Shown piece after piece: positions 1 through 56,036 of a stretch of DNA of 64,000 nucleotides. A model generated the notes under the pieces. That model worked only from the letters and a program-made list of their open reading frames with translations. It ran no database searches and was not told the origin of the DNA. The translations under genes were made by a program, and so were the position numbers. Source of the stretch: Sarea resinae (taxonomy: Eukaryota); NCBI GenBank assembly GCA_026026165.1, contig JAPEUD010000022.1, positions 1 to 64,000 of the forward strand, read 5' to 3'. The stretch's first letter is position 1; every line of letters begins with the position of its first letter.

Positions 1-227
<227 letters not shown>

Positions 228-4810: not shown

Positions 4811-5159
4811 CTTCTCGTTCTTAGTTCTATGTTCGCTCATTTCCTGATCTACCCTTTACACGGGTCCGCTTTGCGGCTTGTTTCTACACGTTTGGACAGT
4901 CCCTTGAGCCGGCAGGTCTCGCCGATGCGTGGTTCCCAGACGACTACAATCAAGCTAACGCCAGCCAAGCTCGAATTTGATGCAATAAGATCTTTTTCTC
5001 TGGGTTGACTATCAAGGGGGCTCTTTGCTACTCAACTGGAATGTTTCCTAATGCTATTGCTCCGGATCAAGGTCGTAGAAAGCTTGATCACAGCCTAGAT
5101 CGCAGAGTAATGAAAAGGAAGGCTTTGATCAGCTCTTACAGCTGCAGATTGAAAATAGA

Positions 5160-6000
5160 TAACGCGCTTTCATGTATTTGATTTCAATCGAACCGTTAGA
5201 ATCTCATTGCACATGTCTGAAAAAGGTCCGCTTAAAGCTTTTCCCCTATTTTGCTAAATTATCTTTAAAATATACTTTGGGTCTAGAATCTTAAATTTCT
5301 CTAACAAAAACGATGCAGATTAATTTAGGATTTGCCTTGAAATATTAGAGACATAATGTTATATTTACAAGGTTCAAATTAAGATCAGGAAGCTACTCTA
5401 CACGCACTTACTAGAAGAAAATCAAGGTTCCTAATATTTGAAAATAGTGATTATTAAGAGGAACAAAGATAATCAAGTTAAAAATGTACTAGAGAGGTAA
5501 TAACAAACTAAATGTATCGTCTAAACTCAATAATCTATCTATAGACATAACTAGCCTACTAGAATATTCGAATAATTATTAATTAAAAAGGACCTATAGT
5601 ATAGTATAAGGTCTAGTAAATAGGCAAACCTGTTTCTACATGCGCTAAGAAGAATACTATAACCCGGCTCGTCTAGGCTATGCCAATTTGCCTACTATAC
5701 AGCAGCGGACCTCATGTATATAAAGTAATAAAAGCATATTTTATCAAGCAAGTTAAGCATAGTTATATACTTTAATATTATAGAAGCTCTATAAGGTCCT
5801 ACTATATTCTACTAAGCTGTACTAGTTTCTATAGGTGTATAGAAGCTTCTAGAGATATCTCGAGTTCTGTATTAGTCTGTAACAGTCGAGATATTTTACG
5901 GTGACGAGAATTAGAGTTATATTTCAATATCCACGGATAACAATCGAGGTCTGATTCTGGGATAAGAAATATAACATAAGTTAATACAACGTGGTCTAAT
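5160..6000. mobile_element. AT-rich, RIP-like mutated repeat relic (copy 1)
   Basis: Abrupt AT and TpA enrichment, no ORFs; homologous in inverted orientation to 29.1-29.8 kb; family not identified. Confidence 0.7.
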
Positions 6001-6859
6001 CTGTAGATATTTGGCCGCAGTCAATCAATTGACAATGGAAAAAGCAAAAGCGCAATCCATCTACAGTCGGCGGATGCTATCCAGATGCAAGATTCTGATC
6101 GTGCGTCAGTCATCCCGTAACACCGTTCCCCCTCGTTGACGTGTCGTTCGGCAGGCTCACTTGATTCTACTGAGCGTTTTCCGGAAAAGCCATATCATAC
6201 GGATGGGTCAATCACAAGAAGCCTTGGTTTACTTGATGTTGCGCTTTGGAAGCTTGCATAGTGACGTAGGCAGCAGAAGGGCAGCGGGAACGACAGATTT
6301 GCAGGCTTATAACCTGTGGCAGTACGCTCGGGCAATCGAGAAGGTGTTTTCTACTCCTAACTTACCGCTCAATTAATTACACACGCGGGAGGCCCGGATT
6401 ATATGGTGGGAGAGCTTCGGAGAGTACGACGGAAGGGTCGGTCATACTCGATGTCTCCGTCAATCATAGTACTAGGCTCCTAAGAGAATCGTTAGAATGT
6501 AGCCAAACAAAGACAATGGATCAAGACGGGTACTGAGGGTGACTTAAGTCTTCTCCTAAGGCGTTCCAGCTTTTGAACCGGTCGTCAAAACGTGTGGCCG
6601 AGAAGGGCTGTTGTTGTCTTCGCAGTTGTACTTCGGATTGTGCATTCAGCGCCGATTCAGCATCTATCTGAAAGGGAAGGAATCCGTCAGTACCGCAGAG
6701 GGCAGGCTGTCTGGGGACCCACCCATCAAATTAGTCACTTCGCCATGTCTAGCGTCCTGGCCGCCGGTATTGCTTAGAGCCCGTCCTATGTGATCTTTAG
6801 CGGATGATTCTTCTTCTAACATCTTACACGGAAGGTTGATGTGAATTGATGTTAGATAA

Positions 6860-9800: not shown

Positions 9801-11500
9801 GGTTGGATGAGAAGGCCTTGAAACGGGCAAGAGGGAAAGTGCCGCGAAAATTGAGCGAAATGGAATACGAGCGACGCACTCGGAAAACTGGCATGAGGGC
9901 TTAAGCTTCGGGTTACCGTGGTGGCCTAAGAAAACCACTTTGGGCACGTTAGCGTTTAGGGATTGAATTAGCATCGTTACGTCGAGGTGCGAGTCGCCCA
10001 GCGTCGATGGCCTAAGATGGCGAGCGAGGCTGAAACCCTCGGTCCGCGAACCGTGCCCTGATACAGGCGTAGAGGCTCGCGCTGCCTAATGGTATTGAAT
10101 TCGTGGACGAATTTGCATATGGACGCTACTCATTTCCCGGACTCACGACGATGCCGTTTCATCAAAAGGAAACGGAAGTTGGCAGAATAAGCGTTCTACG
10201 ATGCGAGGACTTGAGTCAACCGACATGAACGTGCGCTGCAGGGGGTTGTGGCCAAAGAAATGAGGATGTCATGACGGCGTGTGATTGTGAAGAGCTCCAG
10301 ACACGTCGAGTCCGAGAGACATACCTATCTCTTGTCCGGTCGATGGGAGTAGAGGGATAAGAGGTTCGAGCCGGACAACGTGGAAAGACAAATTTTAGAA
10401 GAGACTGACGAATTGAGGGCGGATTTGCGTAACCCACAAAGTAGATCAGCTCCCGGTGTTCGCTGCTCGCAGATAACTTTCGAAAAGGTAAGCCAGCTCG
10501 TTGTAGACCGCAGTGCAAAGCGACTTGAGGCTGGAGTTGCGAGGATTTACGAAGAATCAAACGGGTAAGCGCGAGTCTTCAGCTGGGTGAGGAACAACAA
10601 TCACCACTTGCATAATGCAGTCTGCGAGAACGGCGAGAGGTGATGCCATGAATAGGTCCGTGTCGCTCTTCGACCCACCGGCTCGATTCTCCTGGTAGAT
10701 TTTTCAATGCCTGAGGTGGGCAGCGGGCTTTGTGCGTTTGGAGCAGTGGCTTGCAGCCCTCGAATTGCCGGGACCGAGAGTAATGTTACATCACCAGAGT
10801 TCGAAAGATGCAGAGTCGAGTATTTCCGATAGATGTATGACAAGAGCCTGTGCCATGCAGCATTGGCTATGAGAATGGAGATCCTTTGCAACCATAGCAT
10901 CAATCTAAGAATCACCAAACCCGAGGACCTAGACCCACACGGGATTATCAATACGAGCGGCGACAGTCGCTTTTCTGAATATGCTCGTCCCACAAGCCTC
11001 ATGCAGATAATACCAGATGACCGAGAACTTCGTAATCATGGACGGGCGACGAGCTTGCGGAGATGGGTTATATGTGGACAAGCAAGATGAGGTCTGAACA
11101 GTTGAAGGCAGGCTAATGCTTGCGAGGTTGATACTTGCCGTGGACCGGGCCTTATCTAGCTCGAGGCTTGGAAGTTGCGGTGCATATTTGATTGTGGGTA
11201 TTGCCAGACGAATGGCTTGCACCGAAGCACGGAAGCAGTAGCGGTAAAAATCGAGGCTAAGCAAACCCAATTCTCCATCGCTCCTGATTGCAATTGGCAA
11301 GACCGACAAACGCAAGGTATCTATAAAGTCAAACCTTTGCAGGACAGGCGGAAAGAAGGACGGCGGGGCTGGGTGTAGAAGACATGTCTTGTTTGCAGCT
11401 GTCTTTGCCAAGGCTCTTTGGTCGTCTGCGGCAGTGATCGTTGGCAAACGTGCCCTCATGATGGTATAGTAGCGGCGATGATGACTTGGCATGTAGCATT
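6860..11500 (-). pseudogene. One or more heavily decayed minus-strand genes
   Basis: Patches of protein-like translation (e.g. MAEWTAWNEVLPTILYSIP, FFVNPRNSSLKSLCTAVYNELAYLFESYLR, LYDPVEFINLYNGK) broken by stops and frameshifts; no family recognised. Confidence 0.3.
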
Positions 11501-14500
11501 GCGTCCGGCAAAAGCTATGGGGAACGTTGTGGTATGATTAGTAGCTGCAAGAAATTGAGAAGGGCTAGGTACGCAACTTGGAGGGGGGAGATCTAACTTC
11601 CTGACCGTATCCTCAAAGCCGTTCCGTTTGCATTGTGCGATAAATATGGTGTCATGCAATGCCTTGGAATGTCAGCATCATCCGTGGTCGATGAATAGTA
11701 GAGGATTTAAGAAGACAAATTAGAGAAACGGTTACCGTCTCTGAAAGAAATGTTACCGTAGCCGGCATCGACAGAGTTGTGATGCGGCATGGGGCAATTG
11801 GTTTGATGTAGTGAGAGACACGGCAAACCCACCGTCGTTCCCTCCATCAAGAATAAGAACCCTCATCGGCGGCAATCTCATTGTGATCGGAACCCAGAGG
11901 ATAGAGTGGGTTATGTTGGATGAGTGGATTTGACCCCGTTGAAGCAGGACCTATTGAAGCGACGAACCGTTAGCCATTGCGTGATAACATGCTCGAGCAA
12001 ATGCAGGTCACTCATAGTTTCTGAGATCTCCATGACTCAGCCCCACTCAGAGTTGGGGTTGTGAAAGGCGCGGCAACACTGAAAGCAGTAGCAAGTACCC
12101 GGTATACCACAGCAAGCCCACGGTAGCTGGAGAGGCCAAATCTTTGCCTGGTGGTATTCATTGCGGTCGTTTGTCTGTTGGCGATACAGCTAAGCAAAGT
12201 AGTGGGCTGCCAGTTGTTTACTAAAGTATGAATGAGACTCACGGATGCATGGCCAATTTTCATCGAGGGTCTGCAGGAAGAAACGTCGAAGCGACTTCAA
12301 GAATTCATTCGTGGCCCTGTCCAAAAGTGACGACCAGATCCGTAAAGTCCAGGCTCCGATGGGTGAGTAATTCATGATACCCCTCTGCAGTATCTCATAC
12401 AAATAATGGAATAATTGCGGAATATGTATCGACAGAGCCAGAGGACCAGCAGATTTGTGTCCAATGCCGTTTGTGTCTTCGTGGTGTCTAAGAGGCGGAC
12501 GATCCGTGTCGAGAGGCAATGTTGAAGAATGACGGAGATCTATTCGAGTGTCAGGCCAGTGATTCCAACGCGGATGCAATGGCAGATACTTCTCAAGGCC
12601 CCGGAAATAACTGATGAAATTGGTGGATTGGAAGATGGGCGTACAGATTGGCACAGTCGAGGATTTGGATACAATGGACCCTCTGCTCCTACCGACGATC
12701 GGTGCCTGCGTTGCGCGAGTTCAAGCAGATGAAGAGCCATAAAGCAATCCTAGTGAAGTCATCCCGTCTTTCCTTCACTTTTGAAGGAAGACTCGGTGCT
12801 CTTGCTGCTGCCTGGCGGTTGCAATGGCTTGTTGCTGTGACGTCACGATGCACGCAGATATATGAGCTGAGGATTAAGGTATCTGGCCGACGGTACCTGA
12901 CTTGGACGCATACTGGTGGTTTCCCTAACCAGATCGCGTTATTAAATATCCTACCATATTGTCAAACCAGCTCAGCAGGTCCGATCCCTCGCTAGAATTC
13001 CAGCAGCGGCGGCGCGACTGAACTCTCTTTGCATGCTCCGTGATCACCCTAGGCACCCAGGTCAGTTTTAATTTCAGTGTCACGTACAGATCACTGATCA
13101 CAAGAAGGTCCAAATGGAAAATCGAATCGTACATCTCCTCAGCGGTCGGATTAGAGCGAATATATGGCGAGGATGCTCTCTACTTTGAACGCCCAGGCAT
13201 ATTGTCGCCCCTCGGTATTGTGGTGGAAGACAACAGTCCAATGGCCGAGAATGTCGTCACAAATGCGCCCGGAATGCCACTCCCTCGAAAGCACCTGTTG
13301 GTTGGTTGTCGGCCACTACTTTCCACGCCCTTTGCATTGAGGGGCGACAAATGAATACTGTTCTCGGTCCCAGAAGGTGCTTGTCTTGAAAGCTACAAAG
13401 ACCGCAAGGTTTCATCTCTGGCTGGAGCTTCCACTGTCCACGTCGATGCCGGAAAGAGGGCTGGCAAGGACCTCGAGTACTTATAGATTGCTGACCCATG
13501 TCATCTGTAGGTTGACAAGCCGCTCGTGCTTTCACGCACTGGTCGCGGCCGCCGCCAGTACGCCAGAGTCAACTACCTCCGCAAACTCTTCTGTTTCAGT
13601 AGGCCAACGAAACCGAAAGCCGCCGATGTGCTTACTATGCAGGTATCCTTGGACGAAACTGTAAGTCCGGTCTTCGTCTGATCCCAACTGCTTATCTCAC
13701 TGACCGAATGCCCGTTATAAAGCCTGAGCCATATTCGTACCTCACATAATGCGCCACTGGGAACTGAGCCTCGTCACAATATGCAATAGGTGCGTACTCT
13801 TTGACGCAATAAGCTGGTATTACCTCTGTCGGCGTAGATTCACGGCGAGATAACAGGACAAAGTTCGTCATTGCGCCCCTTCGAACTTCACTACCACCCG
13901 AGCCATCTATGGACGGCGCGGAAGAGTCTATTGATGGGTCAGGACGAAAGCTTGTGGCCGACGAAACGGCGGAAGGTGTGATCAATCTGTGCTTGTCATG
14001 TTGCCGGCTTCCTCTACATTGTTTGCGTCTCACATCTGTTTTCCTTCGAGACTACGCACGTCTAGTCCGGCCTCGCCTTGACTTTCCCTTCCGAGGCCCT
14101 GCGCACCTGCTGACTTGCTCATTCAATATGATGCTGCCACTTCGGCCGGACTCTATCGAAATTTCGGTTGCTGTGGACCCTGTCAAAGTTTCCTGGTCAC
14201 CACGGGCCATCTTGGCAAGGGCACCGCATACTGTAGGAACCGTCGAGTGAAACCGGTCGTTGATTCTTGCTCTGCCCGGACAGCTGTCGGTCGGCTCCAC
14301 GGACAATGTACGCCGAGCAAACATCCTGCTACTTCATTGTCTACCGCCCGGACTCTTCAACCCGTCGGACCCTGTGGAAAGTCAGCTCCTCCCTCTACCG
14401 CGGCATCAGCATGGTGACTTCCTATTAACATCGGAGTCTCTGCTACAATATCCTCGTAACGACATCTCAAAGACAAATAAATTCGGGAAACGATGGTCGG

Positions 14501-17967: not shown

Positions 17968-18360
17968 CTAAACCCGGGCGTTCTGGTGGTTACGATACTC
18001 TTGGGCGGTACGACGACCAGGTGAGCGAGATCGTTGTCGTGTAAATGTGCTGGCCAAATTACCAGCAATAGCGGCGTCGTCGGTGAAGAGATGCGGATGA
18101 TCATCCGAGTGGACCACTACAAGGGCCGTCCGACACCGTCGTATCCGAGGACAATGATATAAGTGCCGGACTGTGGCGTTGCAATTAGCGCAGAACGCTA
18201 TCCAGGGACCGAGATGACACTCACCACAACGAAGGCAGACCCGGTATTCAAAGGTTTGGGTTCGCCAGGAAGTGGTACTCCCCATAATGAGCTCGAATTA
18301 GATCGACCAATTTTAGTGGGCTGCAGACACCTATTGCACGACGGTTGTTGCCGCCGCAGT
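17968..18360 (-). pseudogene. Decayed paralogue of the zinc-knuckle gene at 26861
   Basis: CLRCGECHLGPWIAFCANCNATVRHLYHCP...RQRSRSPGRR..EYRN aligns with CLSCDRRHLHRCTAFCRQCNARVGHNENHCP...RPRSRSPGRG..GYRD; the 5' part is frameshifted. Confidence 0.75.
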
Positions 18361-20324: not shown

Positions 20325-20905
20325 TCACTTCTTTTCGCCGTCTTTCTTCTTCTCCTCTTCCCTCTTTTGCTTCCTCGTCTCTTTCTTTCTTGCCAGCCTG
20401 TTCTTTTTGAGGGCCGGCTTCTTCTCCTTTCTTCGCGCCTTGCGCGCCTCCTCAAAGGCCATCCGCTCTTGCGTCTTCGGCCCAGCTGGTTTCGGGATAC
20501 CTTGTTGTATCCTCTTGAAATTCTCCTGGACCTTTTCCTTCTTCTTCTCGTATCGGACCTTGTTCCTACGTTGGCGCTGTTCGGCGCGTCTGGCGCCTTT
20601 CTGGGCCTCATATTCGTCGTGGGGAAGCCTCGACGCTGCTATCGTGGTCAGCAAAAGCATGCCTTATAGCAGATGAACTTACATTGACCGGCCGTGTTTC
20701 CGGTGGCAGGTTGGCCTTCTTGGGCCGACGCGTATTCATCGTCATTCATTTCGTCATCTTCATCAATGTCTTCGTCATAGTGGGCTCTGCCGACCCCGCG
20801 GGCTTGGTCGTCACTATCATCGCCACCGGCCCCACCTGTCCCACCTGTGGCTTGGTGGCCGTAGTTCTCGGTGGCGATATCGGGGCGAAGAGCGAGTGAA
20901 GTCAT
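20325..20905 (-). CDS. Orphan 178-aa protein, acidic N-terminal half and Lys/Arg-rich C-terminal half (2 exons)
   Basis: Exons 20905-20683 and 20638-20325 joined in frame by a 44-nt GTAAGT..GCTGAC..TAG intron; CA-rich leader; divergent from the Spo11-like gene. Confidence 0.8.
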
Positions 20906-21072
20906 TTTTGTAGTATTTATGGAATTGATTGAATGGGGAATTGGATTGCTTACTTGCTGGTATGCTTTGCTGTGGTGTGGTGTGCTTTGCTGTGCTGTGC
21001 TGTGGTTGTGGTTGTGTTTGTGGTGAGGATGGTGATAGTAACGGTGGGAAAATTCCGTGGCACGATTAGGTG

Positions 21073-21146
21073 TCTGTGTGCCTCATGGTTAGATCTTATC
21101 ATCTGTGTGCCTCAGGGCTAGACCTTATCATCTACGATCTGTGCCT
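21073..21146. promoter_or_regulatory. 29-bp tandem repeat in the divergent promoter
   Basis: TCTGTGTGCCTCAKGGYTAGAYCTTATCA at 21073 and 21102, partial third copy at ~21138; a regulatory role is inferred from position only. Confidence 0.5.
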
Positions 21147-21296
21147 TTGAGTTTGTCGTCTCATCTACACACGCACATGCCTACACTCTTACCTTCTTTT
21201 AGCATCATACACAACAAGCACAGCAGGCGGCAGCAAATCCTCGACCAAAGCACTCATATCGAGCAATACAGCATACTAACGACAGCATCATCAACA

Positions 21297-22875
21297 ATGG
21301 CGGAAATAGCTAAGCCGATCCTCTCCCTGAACTGGCGTGATGATAATGCCAGAGACTCAAGGATCATAGCTGCCATCCACCATATCATGCTCAAAATAGA
21401 CGCTGGCGATACGTCTGTGGTGGAGTTTGCTGCCACCAAATCGAAAAAGGCAATCCAACTCGAAGAAATCGAGCACGACGGCGAGAAGACTTGGATGCTT
21501 GTACGCCGCAGCAACCCAAGTCCACGCGGCTACGATGCCCATGAAGATTTCTGGATTCGATTCATCACAATCGGGATCCAAATCCTCGAAATGATGGGCA
21601 ACAAAGAGCCCATCAAATATCGAAGGGTGCAGTATCAACACCTCGTTGACGGTCTGACGTACGCACAGATAACCAAGGGTCTGAAAGACTGGGCCGTCAC
21701 TATACGCGTGCACCCCAAGAGCTTCGGGCTTCAAAACCAACCTTCCGGCGAAGTCTGGCTGGCCCATGGTCTCAGCATTGCCGCCAAGGTAGTCAACAAC
21801 ATTTTCGAGTATCGAGCCACAGAGAAAACAGACAAGGTGGTCTTGAGGGAAACGAAAGGCATCCCAGACATGATTGCCAGCCTCCGAGTTGTCAAGAGAA
21901 ACAGAGACGAGTCGACGGGGTGGCTCGATATTGTCCCCCGTGGTGTCATAGTCACGGAACACCGAAACATTGGTCTTGCTCTGACAGAAATCCAGCGTCG
22001 CTTCTCGGGCATGATTATCGTCATGGTATGTCTCGAACCCCAAGTTCATGAACCCAGCTGATATTTCCAGACCGGAGGCTTCCCTGATAGCTCCACCACC
22101 GAATTTCTTCATCTCCTCGAGGTTGATCCGCTCCTCAAAGATCTGCCTTTCTTATTCTTTTCGGACCACGACTTCTCTGCATTCCAGATGTTCATAGCAC
22201 TAAAGTACGGCTCCGCACATGCAGCCTGGGCCAGTCCCAGTCAAGTTTGCAAACGACTGACATGGGCTGGACCCACCATCGACGAACTATACGCCGCTGT
22301 CCACAGTTATGCCAGTGGGCCCCGCATCGAAGTTCAGAGAAGAAACCACCCAGATCGGGACATTGAGCGTCTACAAGAAGAGAATTCATTGTGGGAAGAG
22401 GCCAAAGTGCAAGAAATTGCTAACGTGTTGACCTCCAGAAAGATCACCAAAGCCGATCACCTTATCATCAAAGGTCTTCGGAATGCAGGTTGTCTAGCTC
22501 TAGAGCCGAAGCTCAACGCCGAGATCGAATACATGCTGTCTGCGGAGCTTGAAGGCAAATCAGTGAGTGACCGGCGCGTCTCAGGTCCAACGACGACGTA
22601 CTGACTTTCGTCAGAAATTCGGTCTTGCCCAACTGGCAAGGATCCGAAGCAGTGGCATGGAGCTATGGATCGCAGACGAGGTCGATCGCTGGAACCATTC
22701 CGAGCCGGAGGAAGACTATGAAGAGCGCGCTCCCGCAGAGAATCGTTCGCAGGACACGCGACGCTTTGTACAGGCTGCCGAGCATGCCAGGAAACAAGAC
22801 GAGCACAAGATGGAAAGCAGCCGTCTCATGCAAACCATTTTCAGAATGACATCACGATCAGAAAGCTCAGCTTAG
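21297..22875 (+). CDS. Divergent Spo11/topoisomerase VI subunit A-like protein, 493 aa, 3 exons
   Basis: Exons 21297-22025, 22071-22562 and 22615-22875 (GT..CTGAY..CAG introns, phase 0). Winged-helix motif IKYRRVQY(113), Toprim VIVTE(221)H, MTGGFPDSSTTEFL, FSD(275)HD(277), LKYGS and C-terminal EIEYML..K occur in Spo11 order and spacing. Confidence 0.85.
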
Positions 22876-23307
22876 TACTGAACCCGAGTCTTGACTCGAG
22901 AGGACCAACGTCCTGGCGTTCGCGCTGTAACAAACTGACGCTTGCGTCACAAGAATGGCATTCTCGCTACTAAAAATCGGCGTTCGCGTCCAAAAAAGTT
23001 GCTCGTTGCTGCCTTAGTCAATGAATACATTCCGCTCATCTTCTGATTCCTTGATTGTGATCTGTCCATATTTTGAATGGTGACTCGCTCGTAGGCTGAC
23101 AATCATGTATGGACCCAATGATTTACGACCTTCCAGGCAACGGCAGATTAGGCTCTTGTTTCATCGTCTACAAAGTTCACAAAACATACAACATGATCAC
23201 TGTGAGGTTTCGGCGATAACATAGCACCAGGTGAAGCTTTCTTTCATTAGGTAACTACCTAGGTAAGCAATTGTTCAATGTGCGCAATGCCTGATGTTTC
23301 TTATCCT

Positions 23308-23391
23308 TGAGGCAGTTACGCCTTTCGCTGAGGCAGTAACACCTTTCGCTGAGACGGTTACGCCTTTTTATGAGGCAGTCACGCCTTTTGA
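23308..23391. repeat. 4 x 21-bp tandem repeat between two convergent genes
   Basis: TGAGGCAGTTACGCCTTTCGC variants at 23308, 23329, 23350 and 23371. Confidence 0.9.
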
Positions 23392-23492
23392 GCTATATGG
23401 ACTTGAGCCATTGCTATGAAGGTATGCCTGGAATGGGCATACCCTTTTCGGGCCGAAGCTCGGAATGAGGTAAGAGCGAAGCTCTATTTTGC

Positions 23493-24395
23493 TTAATGCC
23501 CATTCAAATTGAGACGGTCCATTGCAGCAAGAAATTTGGGACTTGTAAGCTTCCCTGGGAATACCCACGGCTCCGGTTCACCGGGCACAACGAGTTCAAA
23601 TACTTCTTTGGGGACGATTCGGCCTTGTCGGATGCCAGTCCTGAGATTATGTCCACCGAAATCTGGCGGACCAAGGTCTTCGATGCCCTCGCGATTCAAA
23701 TTGAGATATGCCAGTTCTTGCAAGGTCATTCGCTGGAAATGTTCATCAGCAACTTTCGATCAAGAGCAAATCAGGAACATTGGCGTATGTACCTGGAAGA
23801 TGGCTTTCATCTTTTTCCACAGCGCAGCTGATTGCGCGGCATGGGATGTATTATCACACAGCAAAGTTATCGTCCACAACTGTTTTGCAAGCTGAAAAGG
23901 TTAGTCATTATTCCGTGCAGACTGCGAAGACCATTCTACCTTTCGACTGCGGGATGGATTGCCTCCGGGCCCGGCCGTCGTCCCTATCTGGACCGATTGC
24001 ATCTCGTTCAGGACGAAAATGGAGTACTTCTGTCGAGGATCAGGGATATAGAACTCCGCGATTGTTTTCACCTTGCGATTGGCTCTTTCGCCTCTTCGAT
24101 TGACTAGATTGAGTCGAATGACACTATGATTAGAGGCCTTTGTGATTTGTAGTATGGCTCTATAGTCCCTATCTTCCTGCAGATTAGTATCATAGATCTT
24201 ATAGTACTTAGCATCTTCTTGTGACCCGTAAGATATATAAGTGACTGGGGCTTCTGTTGTGCCCAACAAAGTCGACCTGCCGCTTCTGGGATTAGGGTAG
24301 TGGGCACGACGGTCAATTCGTTTCGGCAATCGGACGTTGGTCCTGTGGCTCATCGTGACCACTTGGCTCGACCTCATGAATGGATTCGGTGCCAT
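23493..24395 (-). CDS. Orphan 264-aa protein, possible PH-like fold (3 exons)
   Basis: Exons 24395-23940, 23891-23793 and 23732-23493 joined by phase-0 introns of 48 nt (CTAAC branch) and 60 nt, giving an uninterrupted ORF; the core is a run of short beta-strand-like segments ending in an amphipathic helix. Confidence 0.75.
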
Positions 24396-24612
24396 TTTGT
24401 AATTCTGACCCTTGATCAAATGATTAGTAAATTGCGTATTATTGATGAAGGAACACTGTTTAGTTGTTGAAGATTGATTGTAGTGTCTTAACAATATGAT
24501 GCTTGTTGGTCTTGATGGGACGGTTGTGGGTGATCAATGCTTTCAGAAGTCATACTATTGCCGTACCAAGATGGGTTGACCCAACGTCTTTGAACAGACT
24601 TCTATCACAATA

Positions 24613-24686
24613 GGGGCTTTGGCCGAGTGGAATGGTGCGTTGTCTACGGATAAGCGGTGTCAGGGGTTCGACTCCCCTGGGCCCTG
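24613..24686 (+). tRNA. Atypical tRNA-like gene (Arg-ACG-like; irregular anticodon arm)
   Basis: Acceptor GGGGCTT/GGGCCCT, A-box TGGCCGAGTGG, T-arm AGGGG-TTCGACT-CCCCT, oligo-T terminator; loop CT-ACG-GA is present but the anticodon stem does not pair canonically. Confidence 0.65.
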
Positions 24687-25026
24687 TTTTCTTTTTTAGC
24701 ATCGTGTTCAAATTCCGAAAGGGTAAAATGTCTTATAAATGGTACTTCGTTGAAAATGCGGATTTACTTCTTCAACCCAATGTGAACTTCCTTTCTCGGT
24801 CGTACACCCAAACGTCGGCGGTCATCCGCCAGGTACGACTCGACTTCGGCTTAACATTTCGTTTCTAACATTCTACTCAAATAAAGGTTCAACGCGAAAA
24901 TGATGATTGCGGTGAAAGCCTTGGAAGCTTTCTCTCTTACGGCTTGTTCGCTTCCTTTTAGCCCTCTTCATACCCATTTTGATGCTGTCTGGTGTGCCAA
25001 AGTGTAAGTTGAGCTATACGTGGCCG

Positions 25027-25953
25027 TCACCAATGTTTTCTTTCTTCACTTTCTAACAGCAGATTGTGCAGCTTGGACAAGGCCTCTACATCTATCGAAA
25101 ATTCAACACGACGCTTCGATACGATGGATATGGTTTCACGTTCCGATAGCAACCTATCCATGACGCAACGGTTTCGCGAACAGATCTCCATAGCTCGCTG
25201 GATGAAGATGGCAGCACCGGTCGTTAGCAAGTGTTTAGACTGGAGACCGATCAAACAAAAGCTGTTGAGGATTGCCACCCCCTCTCACTTCTTCTGATAC
25301 TTGTTCCTGAAGCCAATCATAGTATTGCCTGGTCAAACCTGAGATTCTCGGCGAAGTCGATGACTCCGGCAGCGAAGCAGGCGCTCCAACGCCCGATCTC
25401 GACATTGGCAAGGAAGGATCATAACGGCGCCAGCATCAAGGTCTTTGTCTCTTCGGTTCTGAATACAACGTTCCGATGATGATCAAACTCGTCAATCATC
25501 CCAAATCTTCGCCAAGTCTACCAAGCCAGTACTCCACCCATCTTCACCGGATTCGCCGACAAGACGGAAAGAGAGTCAGCGACACATATGCTCTTACAAT
25601 GTCAACAAAGTGCACTACTGATTTGCACAAGCTTGCCCGATCTAGCATGATCAAGTTTGAGCCCTTCTCGGTGGCCATCTTTCCGAACGTGGTGTTGGGG
25701 TCGACCTTCGCTTGAGGGCAAGGATTTGCGATTTCTGCCCATGCCCAAAGCGAACTAAGTGGTCGACTTCTAAATCCTTGGCGGCATAGCTTATTCCAAC
25801 TACTTTGTTTACGGTCGGCTCCAGGCATACGGAGGCAAAAGCTGGAAAAGAGCTGTCGATATCAACTGTACAAAAACTTTGGCACGTTCGCCGGTCTATC
25901 TGGTAAGATCTCGTCCCGATCTTGCGTGTGTAACTCGGCGTATCGAATTCCAT
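25027..25953 (-). pseudogene. Disrupted orphan gene
   Basis: Long protein-like minus-strand segments (MEFDTPSY.., KVDPNTTFGKMATEKGSNLIMLDR.., MIDEFDHHRNVVFRTEETK.., AILNSFCLIGL..) linked by frameshifts, TGA stops and an intron-like GTAAGA..GCTGAC. Confidence 0.55.
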
Positions 25954-26860
25954 CTAACAGGGCTTTTAGGATAGCTATAAAACGTTATTGTCCGCCGTGG
26001 CCGCCTTTGATCAACGAAACTTTGATAATTAGCAGTCATCGTCGACCGGGAACAGACCCTGACCAAGTGAGTGATGGGGTTCTAATGTAGATCTATCAAC
26101 CTGAAATGCCATCCACTTTGTTGCTTGGACAACTGAAGAGCAACAGTGCGAGATTCATAGTGCTATGATCACCTATCAAGAATTTGGGTCTTTCCCCTAC
26201 CGAGCTCTCGTGTGTGCGCTAGGATGACTACGATTTTCTCTTTACGTTGATCTCTCTTCCAAGTCTAATGACGTGCTAGTATTACACGATGAATGTATGT
26301 CTGATGAAGTTAGAAGTGGTATCGATCAAAAAGCTATCCTACGAAATAATCAAGGAGTAGATCAAGCTCTTAGCTGGTTTTCCTGGCTTTCCAAGGCACC
26401 AATGGGCTGTATGAAGAGAGATGGATGCGCAAGGCCAGTGAAAGATGAGGCAACTTCCGAAACACACACAGTCATCTACCATAGAATCAGAGAGAATAAG
26501 AAGGATCTCAGTAGCCTTTCATTCACAGTCGTAGTCGTCTGTCTAGTGCTGTAATTGGATTCCAGTAGCGAATGAATCAGGGCATAGGGCTCGTGTCGTA
26601 GTTGTGTAGACGCATACAGACTTTGCTGTGTCGAACCTTCTTCTTCTTCAACCACGCACCCTCATCACAACAACAATTACAGCTACAGCAACAGATCCAA
26701 CAATATCAACAGCAACGGCAACAGCGATCACCACCACTACTACTACTATCACGACTACCACGACGACTACTTCCATAAGGTGAGTATAGCCACTGTTACA
26801 AGTGTCATCCTCGGTACAACGCTTTCAGATAGAATGATGCTGATAGAGTGTGTGGCGTAG

Positions 26861-27559
26861 ATGGATCGATTTGTTACACGAGTCGATTTTCAGGCGGCTT
26901 GTGAGATGTGGGGCACACAGATGGAGGCGGTGAGGGCAGAGCTGGCCACCCTCACGAACGTTAATGCAGAATTACGCAGAGAGATAGGGCAATTGCGGGG
27001 ACAGCAACCCGCACAACAACAGCAGCACGGAGGTGAGGCCGCCCAGATGTGCGAAATTTGTCGGTCCGCCCATCGTGGGATCTGCCGCTTCGCCGACAAC
27101 ATAAACGCCGCTCAGTTCCCGATGTGCTTGAGCTGCGACAGACGTCACCTTCACCGGTGCACAGCCTTCTGCCGCCAATGCAATGCCCGCGTTGGCCATA
27201 ACGAGAATCATTGCCCTCAGAGGGCCCAACGCCCGGCCGCCGCGCCCCTAATCGCCCACCAGGGTGGCTTCCACTTTTATGGCAACGACGCCCATGCTGC
27301 TGCAAGTGCAGCTCGTGCTTACGGACGAGAGGCTCGGCCCCGATCCAGGTCACCTGGACGGGGCGTTCAAGGAGGGTACCGTGACCGCCAAGGCGGTCGT
27401 GGCAACAACAATCGTGGCGGTAATAACCGCGGCAGAGGCGGGGCTGCTTTGCCCGCCCTGCCCAATAACAGACTGGTCGAGCTACCGCAAGGGGCTCAGG
27501 CTCAGATTCGAAACCCGGGTGACAATAACAATCCCGATGACCAGAACATGGCCCAATAA
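26861..27559 (+). CDS. 232-aa zinc-knuckle protein (coiled coil, 3 CCHC knuckles, RS/RGG tail), Gag-nucleocapsid-like
   Basis: CEICRSAHRGIC, CLSCDRRHLHRC, CRQCNARVGHNENHC; RSRSPGR and GGRG/RGRGG motifs; leader intron GTGAGT(26780)..GCTGAT..TAG(26860) immediately before the ATG. Confidence 0.85.
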   Translation: MDRFVTRVDFQAACEMWGTQMEAVRAELATLTNVNAELRREIGQLRGQQPAQQQQHGGEAAQMCEICRSAHRGICRFADNINAAQFPMCLSCDRRHLHRCTAFCRQCNARVGHNENHCPQRAQRPAAAPLIAHQGGFHFYGNDAHAAASAARAYGREARPRSRSPGRGVQGGYRDRQGGRGNNNRGGNNRGRGGAALPALPNNRLVELPQGAQAQIRNPGDNNNPDDQNMAQ

Positions 27560-28069
27560 ATAGCTACGGCTCAACAACTAACAAAAGCCTAAGTGCTCAA
27601 AAATAAGCCCAAGTGCTTCATGAGCTTACAGGCTCCAATTTTCGATGCTTGAATGCTTTGCTTTTCTTTTTGTTAGCAATGTATTCGTTTTCCTCAACTT
27701 GTCTTGACCGCTGGTGCCGTGACCCTGAAACATGATGCCCTTGCCATTCCCGTAAGCCATTCTTCTAAACTGATAGTAGGCCAATCAACTCTCCGACTCA
27801 AAACCGTAATCCAAGCCTTACGCATGTGCGTCACGACCGAGATTCAACAATCGTCCGCAGCCAAATATTCAATCGTCACCTCCCCGCCCACGATATTTTT
27901 CACACCAGTGTGATACAATCACTTAGCCAAGCCACGGCATTAGAGGAGCAACTACGGATCCAGCAAGAAGCTTCTGCCTCTCTACATCCTGAGCCACTTG
28001 ATGCTTGTAAACAGCATTCGTCATCCGTCCAACGAATCAAGACATCGAGAAGCCTCCATCAGACCAACG

Positions 28070-28732
28070 ATGAATCCATCCACCAATCTGCTCGAAACAT
28101 ACGTCGATAGGCCTTTGCCGGAAGCTCCAGATGTTGTCAAGGCTGATTACGATGCCAATTTCGCCTGGGAGATTACGAATACTCTGTATCGTGACAGAGG
28201 GGTTACCATCACTCAACGGGCGTTCAATCGGGCTCTTGTTCAGGTTGCAGGGCTCTTAATGCTCTCACTTGGTCTTCTTCTCGAGATTACATCAACACAC
28301 GTGGATGATCCTCCTGATGCGAACGGTAACTACTGGTGGCATTTCGCCAGAAACCAGGCTACCGGGCGCCTCGACTGGGTAAGTAATTTTCTCGCAATCG
28401 CAGCAATTCGGACGGCTGATGTGCCATAGCTTACTAGCAACGGCGCCGTGATCAACTTCTGGGATCAACTACCGTACCGATCGCCATTCTTCTGGTCTTC
28501 TCTGGTATGTCGTCGGGACCTGGCAAGAATGAGGCACCACGAGCGGCGCTACGGTACTTCTCCGACTGTCGCTATGCTTCAAAAGTTCATAGGAGTGTGG
28601 AATCTCCTCAGGATCTCAGTAAACTACCACCGAGAAAATGGGTTTATGGCGACTGAAGAGTGTGTCAGAGAGATAGCTGACCTCCAGCGACGTCTCGAAG
28701 ATTTGCGCAATGGGCTCGGTGCAATCCGCTGA
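28070..28732 (+). CDS. Orphan 203-aa protein with a C-terminal coiled coil (2 exons)
   Basis: Exons 28070-28378 and 28430-28732 joined in frame by a GTAAGT..GCTGAT..TAG intron. Confidence 0.75.
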
Positions 28733-28999: not shown

Positions 29000-29900
29000 G
29001 CTTTCGTAGGCTAGCTACCTTTTTGCACTAGATTATATCTAATAGAAATCAGTTGGTCTGTGGACGCGTGCTAAACTGGTTGTGCTATATAATCTCAAGG
29101 AGCTTTTAATCAACTTTTAGCCTTGTACCTGATCCCCTAGCATGGTGTATTTGCGGCAGAATTTTAATTCGTCTTTATATTATGAAGCAGCCTTGATTCT
29201 AATCACCCTAAAGCACCTAGAGTATTACAGACTAACACAGAATACTCTAGATATTCCTAAACGCTTTTATACACCTATAGAACCTAGTACAATAGAATGC
29301 TATAGACGATGAGAGAATTATCTAGAAGACAATACAATTTCTATAATATTAGTTATATAACAACCATTGTCTACCTTCTATAAAGTGTGTATACTATTAT
29401 TTCATATGTTCTTATCATGTATGTTAGTCTATAAAATAATTCTTGCAAATTTATATATATCTAATAGTATAATATCTTACTTCCTAAGACTTTTTCTTTA
29501 AAAGATATAATATGTTTATAATATATATTTAATACTTCTTTTTCTAAAGATTTTCTTATAAAACTTTCATAATATTTTTCCTCATATCTTTTTAATAAGT
29601 ACACTTACCAGGATTATGTCTCCCGCGAAAAGATGGCCGAGGTATGCATGTCCAACTACGACCCCTCGTTCTCCAGTGCGCTGCGCTATATAGTGGGCAA
29701 ATAGGCATAGCCCGAACGAGCCGGGTTATAGTAGTCTTTTTGGATGGCTCACGTGGGAACAGGCTTGCCTACTATTTACTAGTCCTTACAAAAGAGAATC
29801 AAGTCAAATATAACTTTACTTTAGAAAGGATAGAAAATTTGATAGTCTTTTATTCTAAAAACCATTAGAAGTCTGCCAAGTAAATACTAACACGTAAAAC
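29000..29900. mobile_element. AT-rich, RIP-like mutated repeat relic (copy 2, inverted relative to copy 1)
   Basis: The reverse complement contains ACTATAACCCGGCTCGTTCGGGCTATGCCTATTTGCCCACTATA and TGTACTAGGTTCTATAGGTGTATA, matching 5656-5700 and 5818-5841. Confidence 0.75.
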
Positions 29901-30401
29901 TTTAAGCTGCACTACACTGTAGTGTCTGTTTCACGATAAGAAATTGTGAGATAAATGCTCAGATTATTCGACCGCGTTTATCGGTGGGCACCTCAGTAGA
30001 TGGACATAGGATTAGAGAAACTATGAGCATATATAGCAATCATGATGAGTCAGTTTCAGCAAGCAAATTCCCGTTCCCTAGACCGTTTTACACCGCGATA
30101 CATGATATCGAGCATCATCTTCCCATCTACTGCCTGCAGGCCGGCGACCAAAGCCGTCTTTCGCGCCCATTACGGAGCAACGATCGCAGGCCTCGACGAT
30201 ACGACCTGACTAGAAGGCCAGTCCTCCTCCACTTCAGCCTCTTATTTCCTTTCTCTCTGTCCCTCTCCCTTTATGCCCTTCCTACCCCCCCTCCGGCACC
30301 TTAGCCATTCCTCCCGTAGCAGTGTTCTCGATCCCGCAATGACCTGCTGGAAAGTAAACCATTAGTATGAATCCTTAATGATGCAAAGACCCTACATGTA
30401 A

Positions 30402-30531
30402 CCTGCTGCATTGCAAGCGTTACATCGCGGGTCACACCGCAGGCCTCGATAGCATCTCAACAGCACCCTGCTGCATTGCAAGCGTTACATCGCGGGTCAC
30501 ACCGCAGGCCTCGATAGCATCTCAACAGCAC
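30402..30531. repeat. Exact 65-bp tandem duplication
   Basis: CCTGCTGCATTGCAAGCG...CTCAACAGCAC at 30402 and 30467, identical. Confidence 0.97.
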
Positions 30532-34179: not shown

Positions 34180-36230
34180 TGGATTGCCATCCGGCGGTGA
34201 AGAGACAGCAAACCCGGATCTAGTGGTCCCCCCAATCACCAAATGTAATTCAATCAAGTTTTGGACCTCCGTCCGGCTGAAAGGGTCAACCAACCCAGCG
34301 AGGCAAAAGCATGGAGAGTTCTCACTCGATCGCAATCTCAGAGGCGATCATCGCAGGTTCGGAGTAGATCCCACTCGACCTTGAAGAAAGGCTAATCTGG
34401 GTATAGGATTCCCATCCAGCTGTACGAGGCAGCTCACTCAAAGACAAAGTGTTCTCACACGGCCGCGGAGGCGATCAGCTTGGGTTCAGATTCACTCACT
34501 CAATCGTCAAGACAGTCCGTTCGAGTTTGAGGCCACCGCCTGGCTGTGAGAGACAGCCGCCCCAATTGTCGGAGACAATCAAGTCCAGATTTCGATTGTC
34601 ATCTAGCCTGAAAGCACAGCCTGTGCAGATTTGGATTTCTCAATCAACTGTGAGAGGGAGTTGTCTCGGGTTCAAAGTCGACTCACTTGGCCGCAGAAAA
34701 ACGGGCCCCTTTGGATTGAGGATTCCCATCCGGCTGAAAGACACAGCCGCTTCAGGTTCGGAGTTTGCCCACTCAACCATGAAATACGGTCCAAATCGAT
34801 ATGTGATTCTCATCCGGTAGGATGACAAGACCCGCTCAGATTCAAAGTTCTCACTCGACATGGGGAAGGTGTCCGTTCTGATATATGATTCTCATCCGAC
34901 TTGGAGAAAAAGCCCATCCGAATTGAAAGTTTCCACTTGACCTTGGAAGAAGATTCATCTAGATACACGATTCCCATCCAGCTTTAAGAAAAAGCCCATC
35001 CATCTTCGGAGTTCTCACTCAATCATGAAAAATAATCCATCTAGACATAGGATTCTCATCCGGCCAAAAGCCTTGACCTCGACGGAAAGGAAGCTAGAGC
35101 TTTCACTCGGCTTCCGCGGATCAGAGTTCTCACTCGACGGTTGAAAACCGTCTACCTAGATGTAGGATTCTCATCCGACTTGAAGGACAAGTCCATTCGA
35201 ATTTGGAGGTCTCACTCAACCATGAAGAACGGCCAATCTAGAAATCGGATTCTCATCCGGCCAACAGTCTCGGCCTCGACGGAAAGCAAACCGGAGCTTT
35301 CGCTCGGCTTCCTCGATCAGAGTTCCCACTCGATGGTCAGGAACCATCTATCCAGATTTTGGATTCTCATCCAGCTGTCAGAGACAGCCCCCTCGGTGTC
35401 CGAATTCTCATTCGATTGCAAGAGGCAAATATCCCGGGGTCAGAGTCAGCCCACTCAACTGTAGAACACAGTCCAACTGGATGTAAGGGATTCTCATCCG
35501 GCAGCAAAAGGCAACCAGCTCACGTTCGAAGTCTCCACTCGATCTTCGAAGAAGATCCACTTGAGTACGAGGACCTCTGTCCGGCTGTTCGAGACAGCCA
35601 ACTCGGTGTTTGATTGGGGCTCCCGCCCGTCTGCGCAAGGCGCGACTACTCTGGGTATTCAGAGTCCTTTCCCACTCGATTGTAAGAGACAACCAACTTG
35701 AGGTTTTGGACCTGCGTCCGGCTGTAAAGACAGTCAACCTGGAGCCGGAGACGAAGTCCGGCAGGGCTCTCGCCCGAGCGTCAAAGACACTCCATCTTGA
35801 GTAAAGGAATCTTCATTCCGCTGCTAAAGGGCAGCTAGCCTGTCGTTCTGGATTCCCATCCGTCCGTCACAGACGGCTTCACTGGCTTGAAACAGTCGAT
35901 CTGGATCCAGGATTCCCATCCATCTGCATACAATAGACCACAAGACAGTATTGGACCTTCGTCCAGGCGCTGAAGAGACGACATCACTCGACTGTCGAGG
36001 AAAGTCGGGCCTGTGTTTAGGATTTCCATCCGGTCTGTGGAAGAGACAGACTAAATTCAGATAGGGGATTCTCATCCTTCCGTGGAAGAGACGGCGTCAC
36101 TCGACTGTTAAAGGACAGTCCCCCTATATTGAATAATTCTCATTAGCCCGTACATCACAGACAAAGATTCGTTTCGGGTCGACATCCGGCCATAAGGAGG
36201 CCTGGGCCTAGGTTTGAAGATCCCCACCTC
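34180..36230. repeat. Non-coding array of ~41-bp units, each a conserved core plus a sequence-variable 17-nt hairpin
   Basis: Cores GGATTCTCATCC and GAGTTCTCACTC alternate (same-type spacing 81-84 bp at 34720, 34804, 34886, 34969, 35050); each is followed by an inverted repeat; no long ORF. Confidence 0.9.
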
Positions 36231-36891
36231 TCCAAAAGGTCTACGGGGTGTCGAGTGTCGACTAAAGGAAGAATTAGTGGCCATCGGTCAAAAAGGAAGA
36301 CGCTTACAGTCTGGTCTACGGAAAAGGAGGAACAGCCACGCAGAATCTGCCGCGTAGTGGTCGAAGACCATTGACCCGGCAGTGAGACATGACGCCCATC
36401 ATACGGAGGAGATTTTGTCTCGGACCGTTGTGACCACCATGACCTCTTCACTGCCGGGAAAATGGCTATCCAAGAACTGGACAATGCCGCATGCAAAGCA
36501 ATTGGCACCAGAAGAACTTCACAGGGTCTCTTCAGACGTGCCTGTTCCGGGGGAGGAAAGCAAAAAACGAGGGAACCAAAAAACGAGGGAACCAAAAGTT
36601 GTTTTGACATGGACGTTTCAGGTTCGGTTTGGCTGAGTCATCTAGGCACCGACCACCGCTTTCTTGTTTGGGACTTGAAGCAAATGCGGATTGGGCACAA
36701 GGGGCAGAGTAGGTGATTAATTGACATAGACAATTCTACTGGCACACCCGATCCCAACACTAGCCAAGTCCTAAAGTGATCTTCGTTCTCCACAGTCAAT
36801 ACCATTAATCAATATTCTGCACAAACTCTCACATCAACAGGTAATAATACATTGAATAGCTTCGGACAGCAATCGTTATATCATCCTGGAA

Positions 36892-37950
36892 ATGGAACAG
36901 CCATCACTTGAGGAACGTTTGGAACTTCTGCGTCAGTATAAAAACGACTGTACTTTTTCGAGAATAGTATCATTGACAGGGGCAGCTCCACTCCGATCAC
37001 CTCCGCCATACATCAAAGAGATGCTGAGGCAAAGACGAGAGGAAGACGAAGACGAAGACGAAGAAGACGAAGATGAAGTTATGGGGCCCTTGACTGGCCG
37101 CAGAGATCGTGGGACCGTCGATAACATTGTGGCTGAAGAGTCCCGAGTAGCCAATTCTCCAGAAGCTCCGGAGATCACAAATACAGATATGGATATGCCG
37201 CCGCGTCGCCGTGAGATTACTTACGGTCATAGTCGCCGTATTCCCGCGCTGGATTCGCAGGGAAACTTCACAATGGTGGATCTAGATGTATGTATTGAAA
37301 TAGTCAATACTCAACCATCACTAAATAATGCAAAGGACAATTCCACGAGTGCCAATGCCGCCGCCACCGCAAACAAGGCTTCTGCCACGAGCAGATCCAG
37401 CCGCCATCGCAAGGTCAGCCCCCCCGAGATTATAATCGAGGACAATAACAGTGTGATGGATGAGGGTTCAAGCACAGAGAGCGAAATCACTGTTATCCCG
37501 TTTGCAAAACCCGGAAAGTTTGCCGCCTCACTCCGCAGCGCAATTGCTGTTCTCGACACGACTGACACAGATACTGACGTGGCTGCAAACAACCTGCCAA
37601 CTCCGCCGTTGCCGCAGCTGGATTCCGATTTCGAGGTGGCTGGCGACGCATCGCCGCGGCAAGAAAACCGAACCAGTCGAAATTCAAGGAAGAGACGACA
37701 CGAAGAAATCGAGAAAGAGAACAAAGGCGAAGAAGAGCAAGACGCAGAGCAAGAGGAAGAGGAGTTTCGAGAGCCAGACAACTCCGATGACGAAGACTAT
37801 GTCGATGAAGGACTAGCAGCGCGGAGAACCTCTCATCGGCCTCAGACAAGGAGCCGTACTCGCCCTCAAGCACAGAGCGTTACTCTGCCGCAGGAACGAA
37901 GCCGTGCTAGATCGGCTTCCAAATATCCGCATCCTCGATATCGTTATTGA
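36892..37950 (+). CDS. 352-aa low-complexity acidic/basic orphan protein, probably disordered and nuclear
   Basis: Uninterrupted ATG-initiated ORF; poly-D/E tracts, RKRRH NLS-like motif, RS-rich tail. Confidence 0.75.
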   Translation: MEQPSLEERLELLRQYKNDCTFSRIVSLTGAAPLRSPPPYIKEMLRQRREEDEDEDEEDEDEVMGPLTGRRDRGTVDNIVAEESRVANSPEAPEITNTDMDMPPRRREITYGHSRRIPALDSQGNFTMVDLDVCIEIVNTQPSLNNAKDNSTSANAAATANKASATSRSSRHRKVSPPEIIIEDNNSVMDEGSSTESEITVIPFAKPGKFAASLRSAIAVLDTTDTDTDVAANNLPTPPLPQLDSDFEVAGDASPRQENRTSRNSRKRRHEEIEKENKGEEEQDAEQEEEEFREPDNSDDEDYVDEGLAARRTSHRPQTRSRTRPQAQSVTLPQERSRARSASKYPHPRYRY

Positions 37951-55917: not shown

Positions 55918-56036
55918 ACATACGGCCATAGGTTGTGGAATATAGAGGATCCCGTCCGCTCTCCTGTACTCAAACCACAAACCGGCGGATTAGTAGTTGG
56001 GTCGGTGACGACCAGCGAATACCCGCTGCTGTATGT
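55918..56036 (+). rRNA. 5S rRNA gene (dispersed copy)
   Basis: 119 nt, ACATACGGCCATAGG..GATCCCGTCCGCTCT..TTAGTAGTTGGGTCGGTGACGACCAGCGAATACC..GTATGT, followed by T-runs. Confidence 0.97.

Follow-up and report, generated by a model that had tools for sequence, protein, structure and literature searches.

A divergent Spo11-like gene near a chromosome end of Sarea resinae and the partner genes that recur beside its relatives

The window analyzed in this study was the whole stretch of 64,000 nucleotides (nt) at positions 1-64,000 of the Sarea resinae contig JAPEUD010000022.1 (assembly GCA_026026165.1, a metagenome-assembled genome; Sarea belongs to Sareomycetes, Pezizomycotina), and its subject was a compact gene block around a Spo11-like, or Topo VI-A-like, gene. 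An earlier interpretation made from the letters of the DNA (the sequence-only reading) had described the block as five intact genes, a tRNA-like gene and one broken gene, forming a co-inherited module that was recently acquired or under selection. The positions of these features are listed in Table 1. The Spo11-like gene was real and intact, with three exons and two canonical introns (45 and 52 nt, both GT..AG), and its spliced product was identical to the annotated protein P0002 (KAI9835116.1, locus tag M1819_002484). Gene A and gene G were intact as well, with canonical introns of 44 nt (20639-20682, GTAAGT..TAG, the total of 537 nt keeping the frame) and 51 nt (GTAAGT..CAG), respectively, and gene F corresponded to an annotated protein. 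All three showed the same coding-like order of codon-position GC (GC1>GC3>GC2) as the clear genes of the window. The fifth, the open reading frame (ORF) named ORF C, was weaker, with flat codon-position GC, and is doubtful as a gene. Furthermore, the window starts with (CCCTAA)n and is thus the telomere-proximal end of the chromosome or contig; therefore, the block sits in a subtelomere, 20-29 kb from the chromosome end. This setting was added here from the telomere repeats and was not part of the sequence-only reading.

Table 1. Positions of the block genes and of the surrounding features in the window (aa, amino acids; RIP, repeat-induced point mutation).
Feature	Position	Strand	Remarks
Telomere repeat (CCCTAA)n	2-125		~20 copies; repeat search
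AT-rich patch	5100-6000		GC 0.32; RIP-like; TpA/ApT 1.22; (CpA+TpG)/(ApC+GpT) 0.86
F-like Cys/His ORF	17971-18297	-	109 aa; regex match; tblastx
Gene A	20325-20905	-	178 aa; acidic N-terminal and basic K,E,R-rich C-terminal part
Spo11-like / Topo VI-A-like gene	21297-22875	+	exons 21297-22025, 22071-22562, 22615-22875; 493 aa
ORF C	23901-24395	-	164 aa; orphan
tRNA-like gene	24613-24686	+	ARAGORN: tRNA-Arg(ACG)
'Broken gene' (frameshifted stretch)	25013-26087		short ORFs in shifting frames
Gene F	26861-27559 (ORF)	+	annotated P0153, 212 aa, starts 26921
Gene G	28070-28378, 28430-28732	+	203 aa, two exons
AT-rich patch	29000-30000		GC 0.34; RIP-like; inverted copy of the 5100-6000 patch

In the Pfam search, the Spo11-like protein matched PF21180 (the TopoVIA/Spo11 Toprim domain) with an E-value of 7.8e-8, above the cut-off of that family, and TP6A_N (PF04406) was not matched even at an E-value of 10. 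The phmmer search of PDB sequences with P0002 gave nothing significant, neither Spo11 nor Top6A. The structure predicted by AlphaFold2 from a 65-sequence alignment had a predicted local distance difference test score (pLDDT) of 92.6 and a predicted template modelling score (pTM) of 0.86. The best Foldseek match of this model was Top6A from M. mazei in the cleavage state (9o0g_A, E 4.8e-13), and the yeast Spo11 core complex (8uru_A) was matched at E 4.5e-9. In VIA-align, the model superposed on M. mazei Top6A (9o0g_C) with a Z of 29.0 and a root-mean-square deviation of 3.1 over 337/360 residues, and on yeast Spo11 (8urq_A) with a Z of 22.3. The whole Top6A/Spo11 chain alignments covered model residues 16-435, including the winged-helix (5Y-CAP) domain, at an identity to the solved chains of ~12-14%.

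The family profile matched M. jannaschii Top6A (1d3y) with an E-value of 1.9e-15 and scored archaeal Top6A far above yeast Spo11. In the alignment with 1d3y, 'R..Y' fell on 'REAYY', the second Y of which we take to be the catalytic tyrosine, 'EH' on the Toprim Glu, and 'DhD' on 'DGD'. These positions were nearly invariant in the filled rows of alignment A2, namely R109 in 44/47, Y113 in 45/47, E221 in 62/64, D275 in 47/48, and D277 in 46/47; both the catalytic R-x3-Y (R109, Y113) and the Toprim E/DxD (E221, D275, D277) were retained. In Top6A and Spo11, R-x3-Y and the Toprim residues form a DNA break with a covalent 5'-phosphotyrosyl link. Thus, the two marks of the Topo VI-A/Spo11 superfamily, a Toprim domain with Glu and DxD and a winged-helix domain with the tyrosine, were both found, and the likeness to 9o0g, 1d3y, 2zbk and 8urq extended over the whole chain. 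Because the fold matched over the whole chain and the active-site residues were almost invariant, the protein is predicted to be a complete Top6A/Spo11-type enzyme, and it appears to be catalytically competent. The prediction of a homodimer for P0002 residues 1-440 gave a score of 0.00 against a mark of 0.32, which is not evidence either way. Unlike the solved proteins, the Sarea protein lacks TP6A_N and carries an extra C-terminal helical tail of ~55 residues.

A Top6A-type Toprim nuclease that acts outside topoisomerase and meiosis roles, with a separate ATPase, is also found in JetD/MksG of the bacterial Wadjet/Mks systems (7til, 8b7f; JetD_C, DUF2399). JetD_C was touched by 16/65 and DUF2399 by 11/65 of the family members. 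The structural Z of the model with these two proteins was 12.0 and 11.0, far weaker than with Top6A. JetD is not known to have the catalytic tyrosine, whereas the Spo11-like family keeps it; moreover, the hosts of the family are eukaryotes, and the ATPase found beside its genes (see below) is a classical AAA protein of the Cdc48/Vps4 kind, not an SMC complex.

The relatives of the Spo11-like protein were obtained using HMMER against 1.84 billion representatives. There were 175 of them at E ≤ 1e-3, many of them short fragments, and the closest non-self relatives had 34-37% identity; a word-based search with family profile A1 returned P0002 itself only. Twenty relatives were looked up, and the 15 clusters that could be named were all from Pezizomycotina (15/15). 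The named carriers were Teloschistaceae, Ramalina, Bacidia, Capronia, Lithohypha, Phaeomoniella, Pyrenula, Cirrosporium, and Sarea itself with a second protein, P0012. Teloschistaceae, Ramalina and Bacidia presumably represent Lecanoromycetes, and Capronia, Lithohypha and Pyrenula are assumed to be Eurotiomycetes; the taxonomy look-up placed Phaeomoniella in Eurotiomycetes and Cirrosporium in Xylobotryomycetes. KAI9833915 (the second Sarea copy), A1O1_00005 (Capronia), KY384_004628 (Bacidia) and MDI1490835 (Ramalina) were among the members. In a tree of 17 rows, the median terminal branch was 1.08 changes per site, and the branching largely agreed with taxonomy, in that the Ramalinaceae grouped together, as did most Teloschistaceae. 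P0012 and P0002 were only 29% identical, yet they were sisters in this tree. That result, and a block composition matching that of the flanks, gave no support to the proposal of a recent acquisition.

PF21180 was matched by 46/65 family members and TP6A_N by 1/65, whereas TP6A_N is present in 95% of the members of the Ascomycota Spo11 cluster (Atlas). The pair of TP6A_N and PF21180, which characterizes canonical Ascomycota Spo11, was not found in the Sarea protein. Both domains were strongly matched at three canonical loci from metagenome contigs, L013-L015, where TP6A_N had E-values of 1e-9 to 1e-15. Lacking TP6A_N and having a second paralogue in the genome, the Spo11-like gene is, by its sequence, not canonical Spo11. 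Its family, found in Pezizomycotina, evolves fast, is distinct from canonical Spo11 and has at least two copies in the Sarea genome. The canonical genes, with TP6A_N and Toprim, lay at 7740-9218 in L013, 178-1854 in L014 and 100-1577 in L015. Their surroundings were of the housekeeping kind (CDC20, M24 peptidase), and they served as a contrast to the family loci.

The scan of metagenome contigs yielded 15 loci, 12 of the Spo11-like family and the three canonical ones. Grouping by DNA identity gave three lineages with flanks: lineage I (L001, L002, L003 and L010, with L009 at ~84%), lineage II (L004-L006, with L007 at 94% and L008 at 84%), and lineage III (L011). A short family fragment (L012) stood outside them. 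Partner genes were detected by Pfam, cross-lineage tblastx and tblastn within ~10 kb of the Spo11-like gene. A Ulp1/C48 protease with a shared N-terminal domain was present in lineages I, II and III (3/3; L006 versus L011, 39%, E 1e-48), and so was a G/RGG-rich protein with a six-Cys double knuckle (3/3, in lineage I at L001; L006 versus L011, 50%, E 1e-7). A chromodomain gene (L001 versus L011, 32%, E 1e-22) and a gene for a single-module AAA ATPase (36%, E 3e-36) were each found in lineages I and III, that is, in two of the three lineages. The closest solved relatives of the AAA partner were Cdc48/p97 D2 and Vps4. Between lineages, the partners (32-50% amino acid identity) had diverged to a similar degree as the Spo11-like proteins (31-41%), and the order and orientation of the partner genes were shuffled. 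In addition, the gene model P0007 of Teloschistes flavicans combines in one fusion a Spo11-like part, a knuckle of this kind and a tail rich in K and E. None of the four partners was detected at the canonical locus L013 by Pfam or tblastn (0/4). These results indicate that family members elsewhere are co-inherited with a knuckle/RGG protein and a Ulp1 protease, and often with chromodomain and AAA genes. The neighbours thus differ from those of the canonical locus, and neither a B subunit nor a partner of the Rec102/Rec104/Ski8 type was identified.

Two further features were seen around these partners. The knuckle/RGG partners at L006 4149-5513 and L011 16465-17436 had a common acidic tail, D/E-rich and followed by LY-x-x-x-L, which may be a short interaction motif. 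Beside the lineage I set, NLR-type genes (NPHP3_N NTPase plus ankyrin repeats) and 2EXR/DUF7730 genes were found at L009 1647-3380 and at L010 382-1449 and 2914-4650. Both of these families are common in fungal regions of non-self recognition.

In the window, a direct comparison with the partner loci gave nothing beyond the Spo11-like gene, and two weaker links emerged from profiles and patterns. A hidden Markov model (HMM) of the N-terminal domain was built from the C48 partners of L001, L010, L006 and L011. Among 1404 window ORFs, its best match was exon 1 of gene G, with an E-value of 3e-4, the next being 0.53. Moreover, hhalign of G against the partner N-domain gave a probability of 62% and an E-value of 7e-5. 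Judged by its sequence, gene G is probably a relative of the Ulp1/C48 partner that has the N-domain only. Gene F is laid out as a coiled coil, a Q-rich stretch, a double Cys/His knuckle (27125-27214) and an RGG-rich tail. Its strict pattern, C-x2-C...H...C-x3-C-x2-C...H...C (six Cys, two His), occurred five times in 239 kb, in four partner genes and in F, and was absent from reversed decoys and from 100 shuffled windows (6.4 Mb). The pairwise comparison of F with P0007 gave an E-value of 6e-4, a weak link. On this pattern, gene F is probably the knuckle/RGG partner. No Pfam zinc-knuckle model matched F at E-values up to 0.1, and the F pattern is longer than the CCHC of the retroviral type.

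Taken together, the block is best read as a subtelomeric, reduced version of a gene neighbourhood that recurs elsewhere and is built around a divergent, apparently catalytically competent Topo VI-A/Spo11 paralogue, with a probability of about 0.55. The idea of a co-inherited module was therefore upheld in part. Relatives of the Spo11-like gene have recurring partners in three lineages, the knuckle and C48 genes in all of them, but the partner set differs from the genes that the sequence-only reading had listed. Within the window, the N-domain match of G and the six-Cys pattern of F agree with a module, while nothing corresponding to gene A, ORF C or the tRNA-like gene was seen at any locus.

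Several results weigh against this interpretation. No remnant of an AAA, chromodomain or C48 gene was found in the window by tblastn, tblastx, phmmer or Pfam. The match of G to the partners spans ~55 aligned residues; G exon 2 gave nothing significant against the partners, and the C48 catalytic domain (PF02902) was not found on the G exons. The homology of F to the knuckle partners is statistically unsupported: an HMM of five knuckle cores did not match F at an E-value of 10, the lowest BLASTP E-values of the knuckle partners against window ORFs were 0.047-0.82, and hhalign gave F a probability of only 15.5%. The partner sets vary even among close relatives, L009 having the AAA gene only and L010 lacking the knuckle and chromodomain genes. 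Furthermore, nine of the 12 non-canonical loci end at a contig edge within 10 kb. Since the three lineages come from one metagenome contig series and may be paralogues within few organisms, the number of independent samples is small. Finally, the functional model given next was drawn from domain content.

The domain content suggests that the Spo11-like gene and its partners are a DNA-breaking gene set, which might work as a chromatin-targeted machine. In such a machine, DNA would be cut by a dimer of the Spo11-like protein, which the chromodomain and knuckle/RGG proteins would target to chromatin or to nucleic acid; the covalent complex could be remodelled or cleared away by the AAA ATPase and the SUMO-type protease. 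As the family evolves fast, is duplicated and resides in unstable regions, it may serve in genetic conflict or in the recombination of subtelomeres rather than in ordinary meiosis. A more speculative view, which we consider unlikely at present, is that the set is a self-contained heritable fungal DNA-breaking system acting selfishly, of which the window holds an eroded copy; it might be an element with a Topo VI-A-type transposase, or a driver or defence system that cuts marked chromatin.

The main rival explanation takes the set to be the core genes of a large mobile element, one that no search turned up as already described, with the Spo11-like protein as a tyrosine-linked 'topoisomerase-type transposase' and the window copy as an old, eroded subtelomeric insertion. 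Control over the target site would then fall to the AAA protein, with the chromodomain, knuckle and Ulp1 protease as typical transposon accessories. Transposons commonly include chromodomains, zinc knuckles, Ulp1 proteases and AAA+ regulators, and the AAA partner also touched IstB_IS21 (E 1e-5). A set of several genes that stays together across lineages with only 31-41% identity would suit a mobile element. Divergent copies within one assembly would too: the assemblies with the prefixes JAABUQ, JAABUL and JAABUW each contained loci from lineages I and II, and Sarea has two copies. The same applies to the fragmentary family matches, to decayed partners such as the C48 gene of L010, and to the position of the block between inverted RIP-like repeats (5.1-6.0 and 29.0-30.0 kb). 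Indels were also found between close relatives. A 1.3-kb piece with the knuckle/RGG gene was present in L001 (445-1761) and cleanly absent at L009 8046-8047, with flanks 99% identical on the left and ~72% on the right; a 3.2-kb piece was in L006 and not in L007; and the AAA segment was inverted between close relatives. Against these observations, no terminal inverted or direct repeats were detected around the sets of L011, L001 and L006 (within ~20 kb), and neither defined ends nor target duplications were found. The gene order is not conserved, unlike that of known transposons; the copies within the Sarea genome are very old, given their divergence and sister position; the tree is largely congruent with taxonomy; and the two AT-rich patches may just be a small repeat, present twice and mutated by RIP. 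Pfam detected neither a transposase nor an integrase nor a captain of the Starship type (DUF3435) in 113 + 189 window ORFs or in 111 + 27 locus ORFs. Starships of Pezizomycotina and Polinton/Maverick elements are multi-gene elements, the latter with a protease, an ATPase and a chromodomain-bearing integrase. The Spo11-like sets resemble such elements in genes that travel together, in the combination of Ulp1-clan protease, ATPase and chromodomain, and in their residence in unstable, gene-poor regions, but they differ in having no DUF3435, integrase, polymerase or capsid gene, besides the missing terminal repeats and the shuffled order. On balance, a mobile element was judged improbable.

The other explanations do without a set in the window. 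In one, the block is ordinary subtelomere, with a lineage-specific Spo11 paralogue among unrelated young orphans, and the likeness of F and G to partners is due to chance or low complexity. Fungal subtelomeres typically have orphan genes and a fast turnover, and they carry families such as the yeast Y' elements and the telomere-linked RecQ-like helicase genes. A Spo11-like gene for a DNA enzyme 21 kb from a telomere resembles these, and the relative A1O1_00005, if its number alone is taken as a guide, should be roughly the fifth gene on a scaffold of 4.6 Mb. The family differs from them in that its enzyme is a nuclease, not a helicase, its copies are not nearly identical, and telomere repeats were not seen at most metagenome loci. 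The telomere at the window start, the missing AAA, chromodomain and C48 genes, the failure of F in the profile tests and the shortness of the G link are as expected of ordinary subtelomere. So is the finding that A, C, F and G had no relatives by word-based or pairwise search, that with gene F returning its own annotated protein only. On the other side, G exon 1 was the sole match below E 0.5 among all ORFs, the strict knuckle pattern was confined to the partner genes and F, both F and G lie less than 6 kb from the Spo11-like gene, and the partner linkage in other lineages is strong and independent of the window. This explanation is accordingly doubtful. It is far less probable still that the Spo11-like gene is the very diverged canonical meiotic Spo11 of Sarea resinae, with irrelevant neighbours. 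The full Spo11/Top6A fold with its catalytic residues would fit, and one relative was deposited as 'putative meiosis-specific topoisomerase spo11'. Such an identity is opposed by the two family copies in Sarea, the missing TP6A_N, the extremely fast evolution of the family, and the searches, in which P0002 by itself found no Spo11/Top6A in PDB and the profile favoured archaeal Top6A over yeast Spo11. In addition, a lichen genome paper is reported to describe a canonical spo11 in Lecanoromycetes, the class of most named family members (PMC11515122). Pure chance and a canonical Spo11 were both judged less likely.

No description of a Spo11-like family with these features was found in the literature, supplements aside. 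In the portions consulted, two lichen genome papers (one of them PMC11515122) mention only canonical Spo11, and no fungal family of this kind appears in an evolutionary study of TopoVI (PMC9665070). The family described here is a second one of the Spo11 type in many lichen-forming and related fungi; it evolves fast, its catalytic site appears intact, and the same genes related to chromatin and protein remodelling accompany it. To our knowledge, Spo11, which starts meiotic recombination, is regarded as the one Topo VI-A relative in fungi and animals. An active second family would mean programmed DNA breaking beyond the canonical meiotic machinery, which could mould subtelomeres, promote selfish inheritance or mobilize DNA. 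The family would also be a natural experiment on which partners suit a Spo11-type nuclease.

The remaining members of the block, gene A, ORF C, the tRNA-like gene and the frameshifted stretch, are probably bystanders. Gene A is transcribed divergently from the Spo11-like gene. It had no Pfam match and no relatives, and its comparison with the K/E-rich tail of P0007 was not significant (E 0.36). For ORF C, neither relatives nor a family were found, its Atlas look-alikes were at chance level, and its single-sequence model was unusable (pLDDT 39.7). The tRNA-like gene was called by ARAGORN, but with 28.5 bits it was just below the Rfam cut-off of 29 and was not listed at the gathering threshold. 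For the supposed broken gene, a run of short ORFs with shifting frames was indeed seen, and these ORFs matched no Pfam family.

The sequence-only reading had also held that all recognisable features of the 1-20 kb and 29-34 kb stretches were decayed, a gene graveyard. This was not confirmed, for there were no recognisable genes in these flanks, decayed or otherwise. The ORFs of at least 110 aa there had no real Pfam match, and the long ones had no coding-like codon-position GC. Nor was there a real Pfam match among all 189 ORFs of 60-109 aa (1-20.3, 22.9-26.8 and 28.7-36 kb); only three telomere-repeat ORFs among them had low-complexity matches below the cut-off. A single relic was seen, the minus-strand F-like ORF at 17971-18297, which is probably a paralogue of gene F that has decayed (tblastx of 27113-27199 against 18249-18163, 45% over 29 aa, E 0.002). 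Flanks made of RIP-ruined genes were considered and rejected; RIP-like indices occurred in two 0.9-kb patches only and nowhere else in 1-34 kb. These patches are inverted relative to each other (5607-5911 versus 29788-29196, 68-78% identity).

In the Pfam search of the 113 ORFs of at least 110 aa in the whole window, the Toprim domain of the Spo11-like gene was the sole family in the first 43 kb. A weak peptidase match below the threshold followed at 43.3 kb, and ordinary genes began only at ~51 kb, with two fungal transcription-factor domains, an MFS transporter, an FAA hydrolase and a glyoxalase. Between the block and these genes, four ORFs of 280-405 aa at 36856-37947 (+), 45292-46506 (+), 47024-48112 (-) and 48139-48978 (-) had coding-like codon-position GC and no Pfam family, as further lineage-specific genes.

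At the telomere end, a (TTGCTG)n microsatellite directly abuts the telomere repeat and reaches ~230; 49-nt direct repeats follow at 455-595, and palindromic repeats built on TGAGACGTTCGACGAT lie at 682-1009, just inside the telomere and microsatellite. At 6000-13000, GC skew was strongly positive (0.14-0.18) and AT skew was positive too over ~7 kb, with no coding-like ORF or family match. Beyond the block, a 65-nt unit is perfectly duplicated in tandem at 30402-30531. An array of diverged ~82-nt units, 60-79% alike and with the common core GATTCTCATCC, occupies 34366-35940; short ORFs cross it, and no family was recognised in them. Amid the ordinary genes, a lone full-length 5S rRNA gene (80.7 bits) is located at 55918-56037 on the plus strand.

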